Shown: piece by piece, positions 1-10,846 of the stretch
Numbering within the stretch: the stretch's first letter is position 1
How the letters are laid out: each line of letters begins with the position of its first letter
UHGV virus genome: UHGV-0335014
Length of the DNA: 10,846 nt
Strand: one strand, 5' to 3'
Origin: a virus
Made by a program: the position numbers and the translations under genes
Notes under the pieces: model-generated
What the model saw: the letters and a program-made list of their open reading frames with translations, nothing else
What the model was told of the DNA's origin: nothing
Database searches by the model: none

Positions 1-2706
1 ACGCTGAATGATTTTCTTGGTGCCATGACTGAGGATGATGTCCGTCCGGAGGCACTGCGCCGTTTTGAGCTGATGGTGGAAGAGGTGGCGCGTAACGCGT
101 CCGCGGTGGCACAGAACACGGCAGCCGCGAAGAAGTCAGCCGGCGATGCCGGCACATCTGCCCGTGAGGCGGCAACCCATGCGACTGATGCTGCAGGCTC
201 AGCACGCGCAGCCAGCACGTCAGCCGGACAGGCCGCTTCGTCGGCTCAGTCAGCGTCTTCCAGCGCAGGAACGGCATCAACAAAGGCCACTGAAGCGGAA
301 AAAAGTGCTGCCGCTGCAGAGTCCTCAAAAAGCGCGGCGGCCACCAGTGCCGGTGCCGCGAAAACGTCAGAAACGAATGCTGCAGCGTCACAAAAATCAG
401 CAGCCACTTCTGCATCCACTGCGACGACGAAAGCGTCAGAAGCCGCCACTTCAGCCCGGGATGCGGCGGCCTCAAAAGAGGCAGCGAAATCATCAGAAAC
501 GAACGCATCATCAAGCGCCAGTAGTGCCGCTTCCTCGGCAACGGCGGCAGCAAATTCTGCGAAGGCGGCAAAAACGTCCGAGACGAACGCCAGGTCTTCT
601 GAAACGGCAGCGGAACAGAGCGCCTCAGCTGCGGCAGACTCTGAGACAACAGCTGCATCATCGGCCCGTGAGGCGTCCATTAAGGCAGAGGAGGCAGCAG
701 TCAGTGCCACCGCCGCCGGAAAATCGGCAGAAAGCGCCGCATCATCCGCTTCAACAGCCACAACGAAGGCTGGCGAAGCCACTGAACAGGCCAGCGCAGC
801 AGCGAGGTCTGCTTCCGCAGCGAAGACATCCGAAACGAACGCGATAGCGTCGGAAACCAGCGCAGAATCCTCAAAAACGGCTGCCGCATCGTCCGCCAGT
901 TCGGCGGCGTCATCGGCATCATCGGCGTCTGCTTCAAAAGATGAGGCGACCAGACAGGCGTCAGCAGCGAGGGGCAGCGCCACGACGGCATCCACGAAGG
1001 CGACAGAGGCTGCTGGCAGTGCGGCAGCGGCAGCACAGAGCAAAAGTACGGCAGAATCCGCAGCAACGCGCGCCGAGACAGCAGCAAAACGGGCAGAGGA
1101 TATTGCATCCGCCGTGGCGCTTGAGGATGCGAGCACGACGAAAAAGGGGATAGTACAGCTCAGTAGTGCGACTAACAGCACTTCCGAGTCACTGGCGGCA
1201 ACACCAAAAGCCGTTAAGGCCGCGTATGACCTAGCTAACGGGAAATACACCGCACAGGATGCAACGACAGCACAGAAAGGGATAATCCAGCTAAGCAGCG
1301 CGACCAACAGCACGTCTGAAACGCTGGCGGCAACGCCAAAGGCAGTAAAAGCAGCCAATGACAATGCTGAGAAACGTCTGCAGAAAGATCAGAACGGTGC
1401 GGATATCCCTGGCAAAGATACCTTTACGAAAAATATTGGTGCCTGCCGTGCCTTCGGTGGGTCAGTAAGCACAACAACAGGAAACTGGACGACTGCACAG
1501 TTTATCGAGTGGCTGGATTCTCAGGGAGCATTTAACCATCCATACTGGATGTGCAAGGGTTCCTGGTCTTATGGCAATAATAAAATCATTACTGATACTG
1601 ACTGCGGTAATATTCATCTCGCCGGAGCTGTCATTGAAGTAATGGGGATAAAGTCAGCGATGACGATCCGCATTACCACACCGACCACCTCCACTGGTGG
1701 TGGAACAACTAACGCCCAGTTTACCTATATTAATCACGGAACAGATTATTCACCTGGCTGGCGAAGGGACTATAACTCCAGAAATAAGCCAACGGCATCA
1801 GAGATCGGGGCGTTACCGTCAGGTGGAACAGCAGTATCATCAGTTAATCTGGCTTCAAAAGGTCGGGTAACCGCGCTGACAGACAATACGCAGGGGGCAG
1901 CAGGTCTTGAGTTATACGAGGTGTATAACAACGGATATCCAACAGCGTATGGAAATATCATTCACCTGAAAGGGATGACAGCCGTTGGCGAAGGTGAGTT
2001 ACTCATCGGCTGGAGTGGTACAAGCGGTGCTCATGCTCCGGCATTTATTCGTTCACGACGGGATACGACCGACGCAAACTGGTCGCCGTGGGCGCAGCTT
2101 TACACCTCGGCTCATCCTCCTGCAGAGTTTTATCCAGTCGGTGCACCAATCCCGTGGCCATCAGATACCGTTCCGTCTGGTTATGCCCTGATGCAGGGGC
2201 AGACTTTTGACAAATCTGCATACCCGAAACTTGCAGTTGCTTATCCGTCAGGCGTGATCCCTGATATGCGTGGCTGGACGATTAAGGGCAAGCCCGCCAG
2301 TGGTCGGGCCGTATTATCTCAGGAACAGGACGGCATTAAATCGCACACCCACAGCGCCAGCGCATCCAGTACGGATTTGGGGACGAAAACCACATCGTCG
2401 TTTGATTACGGAACTAAATCCACAAATAACACCGGAGCACATACACACAACTTTGCTTACAACAATACTTCAGCATACGCAGAAACTCCCGGTACCGGTG
2501 GTGGAATGCATGCAACTAACACAAGAAAGACAGCAAGTAATCGCGTATTAAGCGCAGGAGCTCATACTCACACAGTAGCAATAGGTGCGCATACACATAA
2601 GCTCGCTATTGGTTCGCACACACACACCATTACCATTGCCGCTTATGGCAACGCGGAAAACACCGTAAAAAACATCGCATTTAACTATATTGTGAGGCTT
2701 GCATAA
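1..2706 (+). CDS. stf: Side tail fibre protein, 5'-truncated at the window edge (lambda Stf-like / P2 gpH-like). Ala/Ser-rich shaft with KTSETNA repeats, a lower-GC central module, and a His-rich HxH C-terminal region.
   Basis: Frame is open from nt 1 (no upstream stop), so the ATG at 25 is probably internal. From memory the translation closely matches lambda Stf (LNDFLxAMTEDD...[13 protein letters not shown] near the N-terminus; [14 protein letters not shown] motif; C-terminal PIPWPSDxVPSGY...[12 protein letters not shown]...[33 protein letters not shown] and the terminal [16 protein letters not shown]). The stop overlaps the tfa start as TAATG. Confidence 0.9.
361..842 (+). repeat. Ala/Ser-rich low-complexity shaft region of the tail fibre, with four dispersed copies of a K-T/S-SETNA coding motif
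   Basis: Near-identical 20-mers aaaacgtcagaaacgaatgc (361), aaatcatcagaaacgaacgc (488), aaaacgtccgagacgaacgc (570) and aagacatccgaaacgaacgc (823), embedded in GC-rich Ala/Ser codon repeats. Confidence 0.6.
1141..1356 (+). repeat. In-frame tandem duplication inside the tail fibre gene (two diverged copies of the segment encoding K/[28 protein letters not shown])
   Basis: Copy 1 starts at about 1141 (aaaaaggggatagtacagctcagtagtgcgactaacagc...), copy 2 at about 1273 (cagaaagggataatccagctaagcagcgcgaccaacagc...). The two encode nearly identical peptides with many synonymous nucleotide differences. Confidence 0.7.
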
Positions 2707-3305
2707 TGGCATTCAGAATGAGTGAACAACCACGAACCATAAAAATTTATAATCTGCTGGCCGGAACCAATGAATTTATTGGTGAAGGTGATGCATACAT
2801 TCCACCTCATACAGGTCTACCTGCAAATAGTACTGATATTGCTCCGCCAGATATTCCAGCTGGCTTCGTGGCTATTTTCAACAGTGATGAGGCATCGTGG
2901 CATCTTGTTGAAGACCATCGGGGTAAAACAGTTTATGACGTGGCATCAGGGGACGCGTTATTTATTTCTGAACTCGGCTCATTACCGGAAAATGTCACCT
3001 GGTTATCCCCGGAAGGGGAGTTTCGGAAGTGGAACGGCACAACGTGGGTGAAAGATGCAGAAGCAGAAAAAGTGTTCCGGATACGGGAGGCGGAAGAAAC
3101 AAAAAACAGCCTCATGCAGGTAGCCAGTGAGCATATTTCGCCACTTCAAGATGCCGTAGATTTGAATATTGCAACAGAGGAAGAAACATCGTTACTGGTG
3201 GCATGGAAGAAGTATCGAGTGCTGCTGAACCGTGTTGATACATCAAGAGCACCGGATATTGAGTGGCCAGCTTCCCCAGTGGAATCAAGGAGTAAACAAG
3301 CATAA
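2706..3305 (+). CDS. tfa: Tail fibre assembly protein (lambda Tfa / P2 gpG family chaperone)
   Basis: 199 aa beginning [44 protein letters not shown], which matches recalled lambda Tfa over nearly its whole length. Start overlaps the stf stop (translational coupling). GC-rich like stf. Confidence 0.9.
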
Positions 3306-3324
3306 AGGCTTTCATTTCAAACCA

Positions 3325-3348
3325 TTGTAGTCCAGTTTTTTGTATAGT
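3325..3348 (+). promoter_or_regulatory. Candidate sigma70-like promoter elements for the cargo gene (TTGTAG ... TATAGT)
   Basis: TATAGT (3343..3348) is a 5/6 match to the -10 consensus and TTGTAG (3325..3330) a 4/6 match to -35, but the spacer is only 12 bp, so this is weak. Placed in the 95-bp gap between the tfa stop and the likely ATG start. Confidence 0.2.
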
Positions 3349-3399
3349 ACCCTGCTCATTTCGGATGACATGTGTGATTTGGAATTTCAGGGTACCATT

Positions 3400-4578
3400 A
3401 TGAATGTTATTTCATCATTAAAACAGCTTAACAGACAGCGAAATATTAAAACAAAAAAGATAAAGACGAAGGCCAGACTGGCATTTCTAAAAATGCGATA
3501 CAGAAGGAAAACATCATTACAGCCGGATAGTTATAAAACAGTGTGCATTTTCATGCACATGCAAGCCATTGGTGACGGCATCGTTACCTCAGGGTTTATT
3601 AAACAACTTCAAAAATCCGGTATGGTGGTATATGTGATAGCACCTTCAAGAGTATCATTCCTCTTTACTGATATTGTTGGCGTGGATGCCTTTATATCTT
3701 ACGAGAAAAATAAATTTAACGAACTAAAAGCAAAGATAAAAAAACTGAATGTAGATCTTGTTGTTGACTTCTCAAATTTTGATAACACAGCGATAACCAG
3801 ATTGCAAACACTACATTTACTTAGACCTAAACACTCTATCTGTTTTAATCATCCTGCCGTAACTATTTTTGATACAAATATAATCGACAATCGTTCCATT
3901 CACACATCTGAAAGAATGAAAAAAGTTTTATCTTTACTAAAGATAAAAAATAATAATTATGCTGCAGCGCTTAATTTTGACAATAAAATATATGAGCCAG
4001 CAAATATTGTTGCAAATGAATTCAGGAAGAAAAACAAAAAATTAGTTATATTTAACCCTTATGGCTCTCAGAATAGCAGAACCTTATCTGATGAACAGAT
4101 AAACAAAGTACTAGCTTACCTTAATAACCTTAAGGGATATCACACAATAGTTTTTAATATGGGAAAACAGATTAATCATAATGGATTGGATAATGTGTCT
4201 CTATCTCCATTTTCTGATGCCGGATGTTCATTTGCATTGGTTCGCCATGCTGATTTTGTTATAACTGTAGATACTGCCATTGTACATTTAGCCAGTGCAT
4301 TAAACATTAGACAATACTGTATATATAATAACAGAATGCATGAAGGAAAATTCGAAAATAATATTGTGTGGGGGCCAAACAGCAAATTAGCGACTCAACT
4401 CACCACATCCGAACATCTAAGGTCTGAAGGGGGCGACGATATGCATAAATTCGACATAATGATCTTAATTAATGCTATCAAACAAGATTTGACAAACGAT
4501 ATACCGAATTACCACTCGGATTTAGGTTGTAAAAATAGATCCAGAAACCCAGAATTAGAAAGTAGCAATTCTTTATAA
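3400..4578 (+). CDS. AT-rich cargo gene: GT-B fold, GT9-like (ADP-heptose heptosyltransferase-like) glycosyltransferase with a Lys/Arg-rich N-terminal extension. Start is uncertain: TTG 3340 (ORF-track start), ATG 3370 or ATG 3400.
   Basis: Long ORF in a markedly AT-rich segment. Translation carries three motifs that line up with LPS heptosyltransferases WaaC/WaaF as recalled: an N-terminal IGDGIVTSGFIKQLQ (cf. IGPSWVGDxxxxxxLxxxLK), a central IFNPYGSQNSRTLSDEQ (cf. GFCPGAEFGPAKRWP) and FVITVDTAIVHLASALN (cf. IVTNDSGLMHVAAALN). An AGGG Shine-Dalgarno candidate lies 8 nt upstream of ATG 3400, and a TATAGT -10-like hexamer overlaps the TTG at 3340, which argues against that start. Confidence 0.7.
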   Translation: MNVISSLKQLNRQRNIKTKKIKTKARLAFLKMRYRRKTSLQPDSYKTVCIFMHMQAIGDGIVTSGFIKQLQKSGMVVYVIAPSRVSFLFTDIVGVDAFISYEKNKFNELKAKIKKLNVDLVVDFSNFDNTAITRLQTLHLLRPKHSICFNHPAVTIFDTNIIDNRSIHTSERMKKVLSLLKIKNNNYAAALNFDNKIYEPANIVANEFRKKNKKLVIFNPYGSQNSRTLSDEQINKVLAYLNNLKGYHTIVFNMGKQINHNGLDNVSLSPFSDAGCSFALVRHADFVITVDTAIVHLASALNIRQYCIYNNRMHEGKFENNIVWGPNSKLATQLTTSEHLRSEGGDDMHKFDIMILINAIKQDLTNDIPNYHSDLGCKNRSRNPELESSNSL

Positions 4579-4631
4579 AGTAGAAACCTCAACAGTTTTA
4601 TCAGGACCTACGATATATTATATAACAACAA

Positions 4632-4665
4632 GCCGCCCATTACCCAATATGAGGGTATTGGCGGC
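4632..4665 (-). terminator. Candidate intrinsic terminator closing the minus-strand tail operon after gpU; may also affect read-through from the plus-strand cargo gene
   Basis: Imperfect stem-loop GCCGCC-cat-TACCC / 8-nt loop / GGGTA-tt-GGCGGC (6+5 bp with a small internal loop), 9 nt beyond the U stop. On the minus strand it is followed by a T-rich tract (TTGTTGTTATATAAT). Lies in the convergent gap between the cargo gene and U. Confidence 0.35.
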
Positions 4666-4674
4666 AATGTAAAA

Positions 4675-5169
4675 TCAGAACAGTCCTTTAACTGAACTGG
4701 TCGCGCTGTTAAGAGATGATGTCACCTTATCTTTGAAGCCGGACAGCATATCGCTGAACGATGAGGATTGCAGGCGCTCCCGCAAATCCTCATCACAGCG
4801 TTCAAGGGTCAGTGAAAATTCTATCTTTTTCGCCTTACCGTAGCGATCAAACTCGGAACGGGTCGTATTCGTTCCGGTCAGGACATACATGCCGTAAATC
4901 TGCCCGACACCATCAATCAAAGGCCAGGGTCGTCCTGTATACGCCTGCGTGGTCAGCAGCGACAGCGACACTTCGCCACCTGTAATTTCAGGATAAAGCA
5001 CACCAGAAAGCACGATGCGATCATCACCTGCACCGATATACTGCCAGCTTGCTGAACGGTTAACGCGTTCATTTTTCACATGCCGCCAGCTTTTGTTTTG
5101 CTGTAACTGCTGATGCGGCAGCGTGCGCAGCTCAAAAACAAACATGCCGTAGATCATCATCATGGCCAT
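4675..5169 (-). CDS. U: Tail protein gpU-like (P2 U family), last gene of the tail operon
   Basis: 164 aa ORF immediately downstream of the tape measure gene on the same strand, which is the canonical position and size for gpU. A GAGGAG Shine-Dalgarno overlaps the T stop. Start may be the ATG at 5163 (the third Met) rather than 5169. Confidence 0.7.
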   Translation of the reverse strand: MAMMMIYGMFVFELRTLPHQQLQQNKSWRHVKNERVNRSASWQYIGAGDDRIVLSGVLYPEITGGEVSLSLLTTQAYTGRPWPLIDGVGQIYGMYVLTGTNTTRSEFDRYGKAKKIEFSLTLERCDEDLRERLQSSSFSDMLSGFKDKVTSSLNSATSSVKGLF

Positions 5170-5175
5170 GACTCC

Positions 5176-8019
5176 TCAATCTTTATCGTAAAAACTTCCA
5201 CGCCCGGCACGGGCGCGCCGTTCCATTTCTGCCCTGACCATTTCACCGACCAGTTTCGCCAGTTCGCGGGGATTCTGCGTAACAACGTTATGCAGATGAA
5301 CATGAATTTCACCGCCAAATCCGGAGGCAACAGGCTCCCGGTTACGGGAAGTTGCAGGAACTGATGCCACTGGCGATCGTATGGCCTCTGCCACCGGGCG
5401 GGAGCTGGCCGCAACAACAGGGACCAGCGCCGGAGACAGCGGAGCCGGAACCACAGGTGTGATATTAATTGCGGGGGCAGGCTTACTGACCTGCGCAATC
5501 TTCCGCTCCTGCCACTCCCCACGAACAGCAAGTGCGCGGGGCAGGTTCTTAAAGACAATATCGCCGAGGCCAATGCGTTTTTTCGTCTCATCAACCAGCT
5601 TACCTGTGTTATCAGCAATTTTGCTGAGTCTGCGTAGCGTACCGGTATTGCTGTCTGTGAGCGGTTTGTTGTCTTTGGGTTTATCACCTCCGGTGCCATT
5701 GCCATTTTCCACAGGCTTCGGCGGATTGATTTTCGCCAGGTCCCCCTGAAGCAAGGCAACCTTGTCCTGAAGAATGGCCGCACGCTGTGCGTCTTCGATT
5801 TTCTTGCGCGCCCTTTCCGCTTCATCCGGAAGCACACCGAGCTTTTCAAGTATCCACGCCAGCGTATCCAGCAACATTTTTGCAGGTGTCAGAACAAGTT
5901 GTAACGCACCGCCAAGAACGTTACCGAATATCTCGCCAGCACTGGTACATTTATCCAGCGTTTCCTTGCTGGACTCCATCGGTGACAGCAGCGATTTAAA
6001 CCAGTTAAACACCTGGCTGATCCCACTCCCGATTGCGTCAAAAACAGGACCAAACCGTTCAAAGGTTTCGCGCAACGGGGTCAGCCTTTCCATAATCCCG
6101 CTGAACACCCCGGCAAAAAATGCCCTGATGGGATCCCAGTATTTCCAGATAAGAACGGCAGCTCCGGCAAGCGCAGCCACGATAAGACCAACCGGACTGA
6201 ACAACGCCCCGATAGCGCCTCCCAGTAAAGAAACGGAACCCGTCACCATTCCCCACAGCGCAGGCAACACCCTGACGACATTCATTGACCGGGTAAGAAT
6301 GTCAAAACCAAGACGCAGGGTGGCCAGCTTCCCGTAAAGCACCCCAATAACCAGCGACAACGAGCCAATCGTTGCAGTCATTGCCAGCAGTGCACCGCCT
6401 GCAATCAGTAGCTGGCGCGTCAGTGCGGGATGGGCCTGCGCCAGCGCCGTCACCTTTGATACCACACGCGTGAGCCACTGCGTGACAGAACGCAGCGGAC
6501 CGTCAATCAGATCTGCAATGCGGATGCGCAACCCTTCCCATGCACTGCTGAGTGATTTCAGATCGCCGTCAAGGTTGTTGGCCATAACCTTTGCCGTGCG
6601 TTCAGCCTCACCGCGCGCCCCTTCAAGTTCTTTTCTCAGTTTGGGTAAGGAGCCGTCACCAGCCGCATCAACGAGGGCCATAAATGATGTGAAAGCCTCT
6701 TCTCCGGCAATGTCCTTAAAGAACGATACCCGGTCAACTTCCCCGTATTTGCGGGTAGCTTTATAAAGGTCAGCCAGCACATCCTCCATCGGGCGCATTT
6801 TGCCCCCGGCATCCGAGACAGACACGCCAAGCTCTTTCAGCGCCTCTGCTGCCGCCTTTGGCGGTGATGCCAGACGAGCCAGGCTGGCACGCATTGCCGT
6901 CCCGGCATCACTCCCTCTGATACCCATATTCGCCAGCACGCCCGCCATCGCTGCGGCCTGCTCCAGCGATATTCCCAGCTTACCCGCCACCGGACCTGCA
7001 TATTTCATGGTTTCGCCCAGCGCGCGAAGGTCAGTGTTAGTACGGGTAAACGCTGCTGTAAGCGTGTCACCGACCCGGTCCATCTGGTCAGCGGAGAGGC
7101 CGAACTGCGTCAGGATATTTGAGCCAATATCCGCCGTCTCGCCAAGGTCCATACCGCCAGCCGTTGCCATGCTCAGCACGCCCGGAAGCGCAGCCTGAAT
7201 GGCCTGCGGTGTGAAGCCAGCCATTGCAAGAAATGCCTGCCCACTGGCGGCATCGCCTGCGGTGAACTGCGTTTCAGAGCCAAGTTTTAACGCCTGCTCA
7301 CGCAGCGCCTTAAACTGCGGGCTGTTTTTGTCGATTCGCGTCAGTGCCTGAACGCGGGACATCTCTTTCCCGAACCCGATCGCAGGCTGCAAAAAACGCC
7401 CGGCAGCATAGCCGCCCGCCGCTGCCGCACCAATTGCCAGCGCACCACCTGTTTTCAGTTTTCCCGCTGTTTCCTGCGCGCGCGAATACCGCTCACGCGC
7501 CCGTGTTACACGCGCAAGCGCCTGCCGTTCGCGTTCAAGCTGGTTGTTGTACTGTTCGGTGCGTCTGATGGCCTGCTGGATGGTGTTATCGCTGCCTGTC
7601 AGGGAAATGCCGTGGCGTTTCAGCTCTCCGCCAAGCTCCCGCATTTTCTGAATTTCCCGTGTGCGCGATTCATTCAGGCGTTCAAGCCGGGTGCTTAACT
7701 GCTGCATCAGCTTTTGTTGTTTTTCGCTGAGCACTGTACCCGTGCGTTGTAACTGATTAAGGGCGTTAAGCTGGCGTCGTGCTTTCACGATGCCCGCATC
7801 CGCTTTACTGACAGCGTCACGGGCGCGCTCAAATGATCGCGCCTGACGCTCGAGATTTTTGATCGCCCCCTGCGTTCGCTGGATGGAGTCACCAAACTGC
7901 CCCATCAGGCGGCGGGCGTTTTCGGCAGGCCGGGTCAGCCTGTCAACGGCGCTGAAAGCGACCCGGATATCAAGAGTCTTCATTGTCTGCATTCCCGCTA
8001 CGAAGTGCCGCCCGCTCAC
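5176..8019 (-). CDS. T: Tail tape measure protein (P2 gpT-like)
   Basis: 947 aa. N-terminal region is rich in coiled-coil-like, charged sequence (RQLNALNQLQRTG...QQLSTRLERLNESRTREIQKMRELGGELKRHG), followed by Gly/Ala-rich and hydrophobic segments (LLIAGGALLAMTATIGSLSLVIGVLYG; GGAIGALFSPVGLIVAALAGAAVLIW), all typical of tape measure proteins. Sits between the E/E' chaperone genes and gpU. The ORF-track start is a GTG at 8019; ATGs at 7992 and 7983 are alternatives. Confidence 0.85.
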   Translation of the reverse strand: MSGRHFVAGMQTMKTLDIRVAFSAVDRLTRPAENARRLMGQFGDSIQRTQGAIKNLERQARSFERARDAVSKADAGIVKARRQLNALNQLQRTGTVLSEKQQKLMQQLSTRLERLNESRTREIQKMRELGGELKRHGISLTGSDNTIQQAIRRTEQYNNQLERERQALARVTRARERYSRAQETAGKLKTGGALAIGAAAAGGYAAGRFLQPAIGFGKEMSRVQALTRIDKNSPQFKALREQALKLGSETQFTAGDAASGQAFLAMAGFTPQAIQAALPGVLSMATAGGMDLGETADIGSNILTQFGLSADQMDRVGDTLTAAFTRTNTDLRALGETMKYAGPVAGKLGISLEQAAAMAGVLANMGIRGSDAGTAMRASLARLASPPKAAAEALKELGVSVSDAGGKMRPMEDVLADLYKATRKYGEVDRVSFFKDIAGEEAFTSFMALVDAAGDGSLPKLRKELEGARGEAERTAKVMANNLDGDLKSLSSAWEGLRIRIADLIDGPLRSVTQWLTRVVSKVTALAQAHPALTRQLLIAGGALLAMTATIGSLSLVIGVLYGKLATLRLGFDILTRSMNVVRVLPALWGMVTGSVSLLGGAIGALFSPVGLIVAALAGAAVLIWKYWDPIRAFFAGVFSGIMERLTPLRETFERFGPVFDAIGSGISQVFNWFKSLLSPMESSKETLDKCTSAGEIFGNVLGGALQLVLTPAKMLLDTLAWILEKLGVLPDEAERARKKIEDAQRAAILQDKVALLQGDLAKINPPKPVENGNGTGGDKPKDNKPLTDSNTGTLRRLSKIADNTGKLVDETKKRIGLGDIVFKNLPRALAVRGEWQERKIAQVSKPAPAINITPVVPAPLSPALVPVVAASSRPVAEAIRSPVASVPATSRNREPVASGFGGEIHVHLHNVVTQNPRELAKLVGEMVRAEMERRARAGRGSFYDKD

Positions 8020-8508
8020 GCCAGCTAACCACTTCGCCGGGCGTCATCATGAAGATTTCGGCGGGCGACCAGTTAAAAATGGCGGCAATATCCGCCACCA
8101 GATCTTCGATGTGCTCAAAGCACACCAGGGTGATTACGCTGCCGTCTCCTGCACGCTCTTCGCGCCAGAGTCTGGCTCGCTCATAAAATTTACAGCCACA
8201 GCGCACAACTGAATAAAATCGCGTGACGACATTTTTTTAATCATCACTTCATCCAGTCGTGGCGAGGTCACGCGAGGCAACAGCGTAAACATGGTATCCG
8301 CTTTCAGATTCAGCACATCAGACAGCGACAGACCACGCAGGGATCCAGCCTGCTCAATAGCCCCGGTGATCTCCACATACGTGATTTTTTCGCCACCACG
8401 CTCAATTGGTCGGGTCAGTTTTACGCCACGTTCGACAGCCATATCCTCACCTGCCGTCACATCATCCGCCACGGTGTTATTCCGGGTTTCAGTATCGATG
8501 TCTTTCAT
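7970..8508 (-). CDS. E+E': Predicted E+E' fusion product made by a programmed -1 translational frameshift at an A7 tract (minus-strand 8238..8232); E' portion ends at 7970
   Basis: The -1 frame relative to E is open from just after a TAA at 8242..8240 down to the stop at 7970. On the minus strand the E frame reads ATT AAA AAA ATG across a run of seven A (plus-strand T7 at 8232..8238). The E' reading frame overlaps the start of T. Conserved strategy in P2-like and other long-tailed phages. Confidence 0.5.
8134..8508 (-). CDS. E: Tail assembly chaperone gpE-like (P2 E family), zero-frame product
   Basis: 124 aa ORF between the tail tube and tape measure genes, with a strong AAGGAG Shine-Dalgarno 7 nt upstream of the ATG at 8508. 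Its 3' end is overlapped by a -1 frame ORF that runs on to 7970, the arrangement expected for the E/E+E' frameshifted chaperone pair of myovirus tails. Confidence 0.75.
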   Translation of the reverse strand: MKDIDTETRNNTVADDVTAGEDMAVERGVKLTRPIERGGEKITYVEITGAIEQAGSLRGLSLSDVLNLKADTMFTLLPRVTSPRLDEVMIKKMSSRDFIQLCAVAVNFMSEPDSGAKSVQETAA

Positions 8509-8563
8509 CAGTTGTCTCCTTTTCAGTCAGAGGCGACGCACTGCGCCGCCTGCATATTACTTA

Positions 8564-9076
8564 TCAGCCAAGCCCAAGCGCGGAACGGATACGGTCAGGC
8601 ACAATGTCCTTGCCGTCCTTCCGGTAGATGTGGTTCAACAGGTCGATTTCCCACAGCGGGCGATCGTTAACGCTCAGCTTGTAGTAGGTGTTTTTGACAG
8701 CGTAAGTGTGTGATGTGGCTTCGCCCTGTTTGGCTTCCCCCATATCAATTTCCGTCACACGCCCGCGCATCTCGATTTCATACAGATCGCTTTCTGCATC
8801 GGTGTAGTATTCACCCGCAAAACGCAGCAGCGTGCCGTCAATCGTGCCGCCATATTTAAGGAACAGCGCACGAACAGCTCCCCCCATGACAAAACTCGCA
8901 TCAAGCGCGGAGTCGTCCAGACCGAGATCAATACTTACCGCCCCCATCATGCCACCACCACGATAGCTGTCGGTTTTGCGCGTCAGTTTGGGCGGCGTGA
9001 CGGATGTCACTTTGCCCACTTCGTTTTCACCATCCACAAACAACGTAAAAAAGCGAAGATGTTTTGGTACAGCCAT
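8564..9076 (-). CDS. FII: Tail tube protein (P2 gpFII-like)
   Basis: 170 aa ORF directly downstream of the sheath gene, with the start overlapping the sheath stop (minus strand ..TGATG..) and a GGGAGGTG Shine-Dalgarno. Size and position match gpFII (about 172 aa in P2). Confidence 0.8.
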   Translation of the reverse strand: MAVPKHLRFFTLFVDGENEVGKVTSVTPPKLTRKTDSYRGGGMMGAVSIDLGLDDSALDASFVMGGAVRALFLKYGGTIDGTLLRFAGEYYTDAESDLYEIEMRGRVTEIDMGEAKQGEATSHTYAVKNTYYKLSVNDRPLWEIDLLNHIYRKDGKDIVPDRIRSALGLG

Positions 9077-10260
9077 CAGGCACCTCCCAGCACCGCAAAT
9101 GCGGGACCAAAGAATTCATCAGTAAACGTCTGGTAAAGCTCCATGTCTTCCAGTGGCGGAACGGGCGTATATTTGTAGCGAATACGCACACGTCCCTGAC
9201 GTAAATTCGTGGTGCCGTTATCCACCACGTCATACCAGCACTCCGCACCAATCAGTTTCCCGGCAGTAACCAGCGAATCCAGTTTTGCCCTGATGGCGCT
9301 GATAACATCCTTCACGTTCGCAGGTGTCAGTGGACTGTCGATGGTTTCAAACTGCGCTTCCGCAATTGAATCAGCCAGCACCTGTGCGGTTCGGGTATAC
9401 ACCTCAAAGATGTAGGCGTTCGTTTCCGGTGTGCGGTTGCCCCAGAAGCGGAACCCGTTGCGACGAATAATGGTCGTGATTTCTTTGTTGTTGAGGCTGT
9501 TGGCATCACTGTCTTCGGCCTGCAACGACCAGAACACATGCCTGGACATTCCCAGCACATTTTTAACCGGAACGTTGGACAGCGATTTGTGCCAGCCCTG
9601 CTCATGGTCAATGTACGCACGAAGGCCGCACGCATAAGCAGGCGCGGGGAACGTTTCGTTTTTGCCACTTTTCGGGTTGTAGGCGATGAAGTCAGGCCAT
9701 AAGAGCATCACCTCACGTTCGTTGAATTTCTGGCGGTAGGTAATCGCCTCAGCCATCGTGTTACAACCATGACATGTGGCATACACAAACGCGCGCAGTT
9801 TACCCGCAATCACGCACAGGGATTTTGTCACCGCCTCCGTGTCCAGCTCCGGCGCGGCCAGAATACGCGGACGGTATCCGATGCTTTCATCCTGCTCTGC
9901 AACAAGCAGCGCATACATCCCCGTATAGCTGCCGTCAGATTCAGAACCACCGATAACCAGTTGATCCTGCGTTTTTCCGTCTTCTTCTTTGTGTTCAGCC
10001 ACGCGAACGACGATCACCTTTGTGCTCACCTGGTCTGCGATGGCCTTAAGCGCACGATAAAGCGTCCCCGTTGTTCCGCATTTTCCCAGCACGTCATTGA
10101 CGCGGGTCAGCAATGTGGGCTTGTTCAGCGGGAACAGCTCCGCGTCCGCATCATCCGCCGTTGCCACGATACCGATAACGCTGGAATCAACATCGTTAAT
10201 CGCTGTTACCAGGTCGGTATTTTCCGTAACACGGGCACCATGAAAACGAGTTTCACTCAT
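9076..10260 (-). CDS. FI: Contractile tail sheath protein (P2 gpFI-like)
   Basis: 394 aa. Conserved blocks recalled from P2 FI and sheath homologues: AELFPLNKP, GTLYRALKAIADQ, KLRAFVYA, YRQKFNEREVMLLWPDF, HEQGWHKSLSNV, GFRFWGNRT, VYTRTAQVLAD, YKYTPVPPLE. Confidence 0.9.
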   Translation of the reverse strand: MSETRFHGARVTENTDLVTAINDVDSSVIGIVATADDADAELFPLNKPTLLTRVNDVLGKCGTTGTLYRALKAIADQVSTKVIVVRVAEHKEEDGKTQDQLVIGGSESDGSYTGMYALLVAEQDESIGYRPRILAAPELDTEAVTKSLCVIAGKLRAFVYATCHGCNTMAEAITYRQKFNEREVMLLWPDFIAYNPKSGKNETFPAPAYACGLRAYIDHEQGWHKSLSNVPVKNVLGMSRHVFWSLQAEDSDANSLNNKEITTIIRRNGFRFWGNRTPETNAYIFEVYTRTAQVLADSIAEAQFETIDSPLTPANVKDVISAIRAKLDSLVTAGKLIGAECWYDVVDNGTTNLRQGRVRIRYKYTPVPPLEDMELYQTFTDEFFGPAFAVLGGA

Positions 10261-10417
10261 AGCTTCAGCCCCTTGTATCCGTTAAATGATTCGGCAACAA
10301 TCATCACCCACCACGCGCGTAATCTCACCCCTGCGCCGTTCTCCCGCCACGGCGACAACAAAAAGCAGTAACCCCCTCCGCACGCACATGCGACCATGCC
10401 GCACAGGGAGGGAACAG

Positions 10418-10846
10418 ATGACCGACACCACCATGCAATTGCTCAGTCAGGGCACAGACCCCGTGAAAATGCCGGATTTTGATATTCTCGCGGAGGGTAA
10501 AACGCTGTCAGGCGTGGCAGAGCGCCTGATGAGCCTGTCACTGACCGACAACCGGGGATTTGAGGCGGACCAGCTCACCATCACGCTGGATGATGCAGAT
10601 GGTCAGTTGCAGCTACCGCCACGGGGCGCGCGCCTGACGGTTCTCATTGGCTGGAAAGGAGAACCGCTGACAGAAAAAGGCACTTACATTGTTGATGAAA
10701 TCGCTCACGAAGGACCGCCGGACAGGCTGACTGTTTCAGCCAGAAGCGCAGATTTTCGGGATGAATTTAACGTTAAACGTGAGGTGTCCTGGCATGATGT
10801 GACCGTTGAGCGTGTGGTATCCGCCATCGCTCATCGGTACGGTCTG
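10418..10846 (+). CDS. D: Tail protein gpD-like (late control gene D family), 3'-truncated by the window end
   Basis: ATG at 10418 preceded by GGGAGG with 7 nt spacing. The translation (...MSLSLTDNRGFEADQLTITLDDADGQLQLPPRGARLTVLIGWKGEPLTEKGTYIVDEIAHEGPPDRLTVSARSADFRDEF...SWHD) matches the conserved N-terminal region of P2 gpD as recalled. Open to the end of the window. Confidence 0.85.
   Translation, partial: MTDTTMQLLSQGTDPVKMPDFDILAEGKTLSGVAERLMSLSLTDNRGFEADQLTITLDDADGQLQLPPRGARLTVLIGWKGEPLTEKGTYIVDEIAHEGPPDRLTVSARSADFRDEFNVKREVSWHDVTVERVVSAIAHRYGL

Follow-up and report, generated by a model that had tools for sequence, protein, structure and literature searches.

The stretch at about nt 1380–2110 of the side tail fibre gene very probably encodes two structural cassettes of the trimeric fibre, here designated dom1 and dom2, which follow one another and assort independently. 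The window, which is the complete 10,846-nt stretch of viral DNA analysed (UHGV-0335014), carries these cassettes between the repeats of the fibre shaft and a distal tip related to T4 gp37. The high confidence placed in this reading is a joint one. It covers the existence of the two cassettes, their role in the shaft, their exchange at conserved linkers, the location of receptor specificity at the tip, and the explanation of the G+C step within the gene by amino-acid composition. The stretch represents a real but ordinary and already documented case of tail-fibre mosaicism.

Organization of the fibre gene

The side tail fibre gene (Stf type; Pfam PF08400, PF03406 and PF07484) occupies nt 1–2706 of the plus strand. 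Frame 1 contains no stop from base 1 until the stop codon at nt 2704–2706, and the 5′ end of the gene is therefore truncated by the window edge. The window begins 258 nt inside the stf coding sequence of phage PhiR42_1. The first 150 nt (nt 1–150) encode the last part of the N-terminal prophage tail fibre domain of lambda type, which is responsible for tail attachment (PF08400 profile positions 93–134 of 134, E 6e-13; 88% nucleotide identity with lambda stf). The remainder of this domain lies beyond the window edge. The domain is followed by a repetitive shaft (nt 151–1120), 73% of which is made up of Ala, Ser and Thr (38%, 23% and 12%, respectively). The shaft has a GC2 of 0.74 and contains the 26-nt repeat family D2. 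Two Phage_fiber_2 repeats (nt 1124–1362; PF03406, E 4e-37 in two stretches) come next and coincide with a 107-nt direct repeat (family D1). A conserved linker of 28 residues (nt 1363–1446), which aligns with the end of Sc and the start of Sv′ of phage Mu in the structure 8JU3, forms the putative left recombination boundary.

The linker leads into dom1 (nt 1447–1809), a globular alpha/beta domain common to Mu S′, P2 H and P1 Sv′. This is followed by dom2 (nt 1792–2109), which is common to P1 Sv/Sv′, SSU5 and D6. Both are predicted to be shaft domains. Downstream of them the gene encodes a collar domain (nt 2116–2259; PF07484, E 4e-11, and alignment to 2XGF) and a gp37-like needle with five HxH motifs (nt 2344–2703), the proximal and distal strands of which are conserved. 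Within the needle lies a hypervariable tip insert (nt 2440–2559), the predicted receptor-binding element. The tail fibre assembly chaperone Tfa is encoded on the same strand (nt 2706–3305; PF02413, E 1e-44) by an ORF that overlaps the fibre stop codon. The PF08400 domain, the Phage_fiber_2 repeats, the collar, the gp37-like HxH C-terminus and the tfa gene immediately downstream are all features of a lambda-type Stf.

The tfa gene is followed on the plus strand by a low-GC ORF resembling glycosyltransferase family 9 (GT9; nt 3340–4578). The minus strand of the 3′ part of the window carries P2-type genes for gpU, the tape measure, E/E′, the tube and the sheath. The genomic context 3′ of the fibre and tfa genes is thus a P2-like tail block and not a lambdoid one; the upstream DNA lies beyond the window edge. 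No Rfam match was obtained over nt 1380–2100, and promoter and terminator matches in nt 1200–3500 were at or below the level expected by chance. A minus-strand ORF at nt 1770–1961 was rejected, as it had no support.

Mosaic structure of the gene

The original prediction had described nt 1380–2100 as a horizontally exchanged mosaic module with no counterpart in lambda stf. The peptide and the nucleotide string quoted in its support (nt 1573–1620) both occur in the fibre gene, in frame 1. Neither blastn nor tblastn against lambda stf gave a match within about nt 1350–2139, which bears out the claimed lack of a counterpart. The blastn matches to lambda (J02459) are located at nt 1–639 (88%), 962–1219 (79%), 2140–2424 (87%) and 2581–3276 (88%). 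The statement that both ends of the fibre follow lambda holds roughly; the window contains an extra 322 nt of Ala/Ser repeats (nt 640–961), and nt 2425–2580 of the tip are unmatched.

Homology to the ev099 fibre breaks at nt 1409/1410 and 2098/2099. Since these positions nearly coincide with the predicted limits, the interval 1380–2100 was remarkably accurate as a homology block. In the fibres of P2-like prophages the right break lies at nt 2126. Sharp breaks at nt 1350–1410 and 2098–2140 are seen in the comparisons with lambda, ev099 and TH9F11, where the same slot is filled by unrelated sequence of 440 nt, 1150 nt and 516 nt, respectively.

Searched separately, the three parts of the fibre match different phage lineages. 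Matches to nt 1–1120 were found in lambdoid and Stx-converting phages only. The segment at nt 1410–2098 matches seven lambdoid phages at 98–100% identity and P1/P7/D6/SSU5, P2-like and Mu-like phages at 70–77%. The matches to nt 2110–2703 comprise lambdoid and P2-like phages as well as the gp37 genes of T-even phages. Because the homology to lambda stops near nt 1350 and resumes at nt 2140, and the homology to ev099 breaks at nt 1410 and 2098, the mosaic reading of the segment is correct. The module is paired with a lambda-type N-terminus in PhiR42_1 and other phages, follows a P2-type N-terminus in E. coli A8, and has been found together with at least three different tips. At the protein level, the matches bearing the module possess either PF12571 or PF08400 at the N-terminus and either Collar or gp37_C at the C-terminus. 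Of 5,426 complete E. coli genomes, about 800 contain 80% or more of nt 1000–2800 of the window. In E. coli A8 the module is broken by an IS3-family element at a site corresponding to window position about 1704–1708.

The cassettes dom1 and dom2

Together with the preceding linker, dom1 (aa 455–611, counted from base 1) matches residues 178–334 of PDB 8JU3 with an E value of 2.5e-68. The tblastn identity of dom1 is 71% to Mu, 69% to P2 and 81% to P1. Structure prediction of the middle segment, which had been proposed as a check, gave a confident result for one of the two cassettes. The AF2 model of dom1 is confident (pLDDT 72–93), and its sole significant Foldseek match is 8JU3 (E 2e-18); the AF2 monomer of dom2 has a pLDDT below 60 and thus an unreliable fold. 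Fold matches other than 8JU3 are meaningless because of this low pLDDT, and matches to R-pyocin fibres and to Photorhabdus lectins were rejected (E > 0.2). The dom2 cassette (aa 598–703) shows 64% tblastn identity to P1 at two places, Sv and Sv′. Its blastn matches include the SSU5 and D6 fibres, and it also matches PHROG 22609/37852. A Pfam search with the module gave only a sub-threshold match to Gp34_trimer (20 bits against a cut-off of 27 bits), and an NCBIfam search gave no match.

The two cassettes are found in different arrangements. In P1 Sv′ dom2 is proximal to dom1, so that their order is swapped relative to the window. In Mu S′ and P2 H dom1 occurs without dom2, ahead of unrelated C-termini. 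The homology suggests that dom1 and dom2 serve as a shaft or spacer presenting the distal tip. They are read as exchangeable shaft cassettes because the gp37-like tip is distal to them and the variability is confined to the tip insert.

Comparison with known fibres

The fibre gene shares contiguous 95–98% nucleotide identity over nt 1–2447 with the stf genes of PhiR42_1, PhiR26_1, mEp460_ev081, PhiR29_1/2, PhiR68_2 and Salmonella phage SPF_0923. These genes have the same architecture, contain a module that is 98.4–100% identical, and are followed by tfa. Their tip insert (nt 2448–2553), however, is unrelated to that of the window, and their last 150 nt and tfa are only 88% identical. Furthermore, their 3′ neighbourhood is lambdoid, with a Pin-type recombinase, whereas that of the window is P2-like. 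The Stf (orf-401/orf-314) and Tfa of Ur-lambda are also similar to the products of the window. The N-terminal domain and the Ala/Ser shaft display 79–88% nucleotide identity, and the collar, the HxH needle, the C-terminal strands and tfa display 87–88%. Unlike the fibre of the window, that of Ur-lambda contains neither dom1 nor dom2 and has the unrelated 440-nt segment in their slot. It also lacks the 322 nt of shaft repeats and possesses a much longer tip insert.

The G(–) fibre S′ of Mu (gp52; 8JU3) shares with the window the linker, dom1 and the Phage_fiber_2/Sc region. It differs by its Mu-type baseplate-binding N-terminus and its C-terminal domain, and by the lack of dom2, of the collar and of the gp37-like needle. 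In addition, the Mu fibre is switched by Gin at a gix site, which is absent from the window. The Phage_fiber_2 region and dom1 (69% amino-acid identity) are shared with P2 gpH, while dom1 (81%) and dom2 (64%) are shared with the Sv′ part of P1 gpS. In P1, dom2 stands before dom1 and both belong to the C segment, which is inverted by Cin. The C-terminal receptor-binding regions of P2 gpH, P1 gpS and the P7/D6/SSU5 fibres are unrelated to that of the window. The tip of T4 gp37 (2XGF) has the collar, the HxH needle and the terminal strand in common with the fibre, and this homology lies outside the module. The tip insert of the window is far shorter than the head domain of T4 gp37.

Base composition and origin of the module

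The raw G+C content falls from 0.60–0.66 over nt 1–1100 to 0.455–0.52 over nt 1400–2100. Calculated by part, it amounts to 0.615 for nt 1–1140, 0.495 for nt 1410–2098 and 0.496 for nt 2099–2703, and at nt 2401–2700 it is lower than in the module (0.435–0.445). The lower G+C content predicted for the middle of the gene stands as a drop relative to the 5′ shaft; it does not stand as a central trough, since the 3′ third has an equal value. The predicted difference in codon usage was not found. A 5000-fold shuffle of synonymous codons within the gene, which was accompanied by partitioning into GC1, GC2 and GC3, predicted a G+C content of 0.509 ± 0.009 for the module. The observed value of 0.495 does not depart from it significantly (z = –1.5). 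The GC3 of the module is 0.459, compared with 0.529 upstream (Fisher p = 0.09) and 0.443 downstream (Fisher p = 0.77). The module therefore has no demonstrable codon-usage difference. The G+C step is accounted for by amino-acid composition, namely by the exit from the Ala/Ser/Thr-rich shaft, and not by foreign codon usage. Lower G+C content and codon usage, which had been taken as the signature of a swap, do not indicate one here. This calls for caution, as a G+C step within a fibre gene can be purely an effect of amino-acid composition.

For these reasons, a recent import of the segment as compositionally foreign DNA from a donor of lower G+C content is highly improbable. The raw drop from the upstream region and the slightly lower GC3 would fit such an origin, but the observed G+C content agrees with the shuffle expectation and neither GC3 comparison is significant. 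Besides, the module equals the 3′ third of the gene in G+C content, and a value of about 0.50 is normal in the DNA of E. coli phages. The real low-GC island of the window is the GT9-like gene, with a G+C content of 0.335. Vertical descent with deletion, in which the module is ancestral and was lost from lambda, ev099 and the other phages or diverged in them without any cassette exchange, is also very unlikely, if slightly less so. Pairwise breakpoints alone cannot give the direction of a change, and the slot in lambda is indeed shorter than that in the window (440 nt against 790 nt). The slot is nevertheless occupied by unrelated sequence of varied lengths, which is not what mere deletion leaves behind, and the flanks are 88–94% identical around a module for which no homology is detectable. 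Moreover, the cassettes are also found behind unrelated N-termini in myoviruses, and P1 has them in another order.

Probable location of the receptor specificity

Residues 710–901 of the fibre align with the tip of T4 gp37 (2XGF, E 1e-68), and the alignment includes the collar, the five HxH motifs and the terminal strand. About 200 residues of gp37-like collar, needle and tip are thus located C-terminal to the module, which shows that the module is not distal. When six relatives are aligned, the collar and needle strands are invariant and surround an insert that cannot be aligned (aa 814–853, nt 2440–2559). This insert has no match in PhiR42_1, SPF_0923, ev099 or lambda, although its flanks are conserved. 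Nothing else in the fibre distinguishes it from that of PhiR42_1, to which it is otherwise 98–100% identical. It is identical to the tip insert of H of the P2-like prophage L010 and is the shortest among the compared relatives. The module itself is not hypervariable, being 98–100% identical in seven phages with differing tips. According to a review, the equivalent part of lambda Stf (residues 578–774) comprises collar, needle and OmpC-binding domain (PMC7291167). An engineered fusion of residues 1–393 of lambda Stf with residues 251 to the end of P2 H is functional and takes on the LPS specificity of P2 (PMC11338833), which fits a modular fibre with specificity set by its distal end. The fusion point falls within the same shaft region as the module. 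It is most likely that the receptor specificity of the fibre resides in the gp37-like tip insert (nt 2440–2559) and the cognate Tfa and not in the module. The homology to T4 gp37 and lambda Stf points to this receptor role of the tip.

The module had originally been regarded as a receptor-binding, host-range-determining cassette that is swapped to change hosts. Several observations speak in favour of such a function: the counterpart region is variable (invertible) in Mu S′ and P1 Sv′, other modules replace the segment in lambda, ev099 and P2-like fibres, and some fibres have lateral glycan-binding sites along the shaft. We nevertheless consider it unlikely. A complete gp37-type collar, needle and tip comes after the module, and the variation sits in the tip insert, the module being constant in phages whose tips differ. 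The C-terminal domains that dom1 precedes in Mu S′ and P2 H are unrelated. No significant lectin-like fold was detected, the best matches outside Mu having E values above 0.2. As a weaker possibility, dom1 or dom2 might carry an accessory glycan-binding site. The likely specificity determinant is accordingly placed at nt 2440–2559 rather than in the module.

Boundaries and proposed mechanism of exchange

The two cassettes lie downstream of the Phage_fiber_2 repeats and ahead of the collar, needle and tip, and we propose that they are exchanged by recombination at the linkers. They are bounded by short conserved linker motifs of 17, 10 and 13 residues. These motifs recur in lambda-, P2-, Mu-, P1- and T-even-type fibre genes and would supply the homology for recombination between fibre segments. 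This mechanism is suggested solely by the end points of homology.

The left boundary motif is the counterpart of the Sc/Sv junction of Mu, in which gix is embedded. The homology to Mu Sv′ begins at nt 1380 of the window, and gixR is located 27–52 nt upstream of the corresponding position in Mu. No gix-like site was found in nt 1–3400 with up to 8 mismatches allowed, while the control search recovered gixR in Mu. The window contains neither an ORF for a resolvase or serine invertase nor an inverted alternative Sv′/U′ set; tfa is followed by the GT9-like ORF and then by the P2-like gpU gene. An invertase crossover site at this boundary, whether relic or active, was therefore rejected, as neither a gix-like site nor an invertase gene is present in the window. 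The sister prophages L022–L025 carry a resolvase ORF.

The junction with the P2-like tail block

The window shows zero mismatches to PhiR42_1 stf over nt 1336–2411 and zero mismatches to the P2-like prophage L010 (GCA_015139595.1) over nt 2317–9354. These two matches overlap, which makes the window an exact hybrid between the stf of a PhiR42_1-like phage and a P2-like prophage. The join is located inside the overlap, where both sources are identical over 95 nt of the collar region (nt 2317–2411). Nucleotides specific to the left part are found at positions 2292, 2295, 2307 and 2316, and those specific to the right part at 2412, 2424 and 2433–2445. The fibre of L010 itself has a P2-type N-terminus and does not contain the module. 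The exact Tfa and sheath proteins of the window were found only in ordinary P2-like prophages. The exact junction, searched as a 151-mer (nt 2290–2440), is absent from three public collections comprising genomes, viruses and metagenome contigs.

The hybrid could tentatively be attributed to a genuine recent homologous recombination between co-resident prophages, with a crossover between a PhiR42_1-like stf and a P2-like H at nt 2317–2411, but we regard this as somewhat doubtful. Alternatively, the junction may be an assembly chimera across the shared repeat. If the recombination is real, it would have produced a lambda-type side fibre with dom1 and dom2 that ends in a tip and Tfa of the P2 lineage, and the chromosome would have been rearranged.

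Significance

That lambda, P2, Mu, P1 and T-even phages exchange segments of their fibre genes is well documented (PMC3945230, which cites Montag 1989, Haggard-Ljungquist 1992 and Sandmeier). The stf gene is a classic case of fibre gene transfer, and recombination of lambda stf-tfa with the fibre genes of a resident prophage has been shown experimentally (PMC3945230). The module sequence has already been deposited at 100% identity. Given that the exchange is documented, that deposited phage genomes contain the exact module and that the crystal structure of dom1 has been solved, the mosaicism described here is nothing new in kind. The natural cassette boundaries at about nt 1363–1446, 1792–1809 and 2098–2140 may be used as fusion points for engineered fibres. 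The practical value of the finding is modest, and what it recovers is a textbook property of the fibre genes of enterobacterial phages.

The window is an exact hybrid of two sources, the parts of which extend over 1-2411 and 2317-10846, respectively. The left part is identical to the stf gene of the lambdoid phage PhiR42_1 (zero mismatches over 1336-2411), and the right part matches a P2-like prophage in GCA_015139595.1 just as exactly (locus L010; zero mismatches over 2317-9354). The two parts overlap at the junction by 95 nt (2317-2411), which are the same in both sources. Either two prophages have genuinely recombined or the hybrid is a chimera created during assembly.

Within the fibre gene, the Ala/Ser/Thr-rich shaft exceeds that of lambda by 322 nt (640-961). 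A shaft repeat family with a 26-nt motif (AAKTSETNA-type) is present at 355-842 in at least four copies, suggesting that the shaft length varies through repeat expansion. The downstream module, comprising two probable shaft cassettes, is also found in E. coli A8 (locus L006), where it forms part of a P2-type H gene and is split by an IS3-family element (L006 6566-7898). The insertion corresponds to approximately 1704-1708 of the window; the sequence of 1704-1708 is found on either side of the element and looks like a target-site duplication. Next to the fibre gene of the window, the tail fibre assembly chaperone gene, tfa, contains a match to the Rfam family IS009 (RF02111) on the plus strand at 3049-3247; it scores 187.7 bits, where the gathering score is 117. 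This match falls wholly inside the tfa coding sequence.

The sheath–tube–E–tape measure–gpU block (4675-10260) lies on the minus strand. In the P2-like prophage lineage (loci L008-L027), the H-G genes converge on the block from sheath to gpU, and gpD-ogr diverges from it; in P2 itself, all these gene groups run in one direction. The orientation of the block is a stable trait of the lineage and not a local accident, since 810 indexed blocks of the collection contain the identical sheath protein and the arrangement is common to all ten contigs among the matches listed.

The true low-GC island of the window is the plus-strand ORF at 3340-4578 between tfa and gpU, with a GC content of 0.335 and a GC3 of 0.306. 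The ORF encodes a glycosyltransferase-family-9-like (heptosyltransferase-like) product. This family assignment is weak: the Pfam match reaches 26.7 bits, and the NCBIfam heptosyltransferase models score far under their cut-offs. In sister prophages the same slot is occupied either by a Macro-domain gene or by an invertase accompanied by alternative fibre ends. The latter is the case in L022-L025, where a serine invertase is located 3′ of gpU together with alternative fibre C-termini and Tfa genes arranged back-to-back; this is an invertible fibre switch of the Mu G / P1 C type. The glycosyltransferase-like gene looks like a cargo gene (moron) in a variable slot. Speculatively, its putative product might act in LPS modification or superinfection exclusion.
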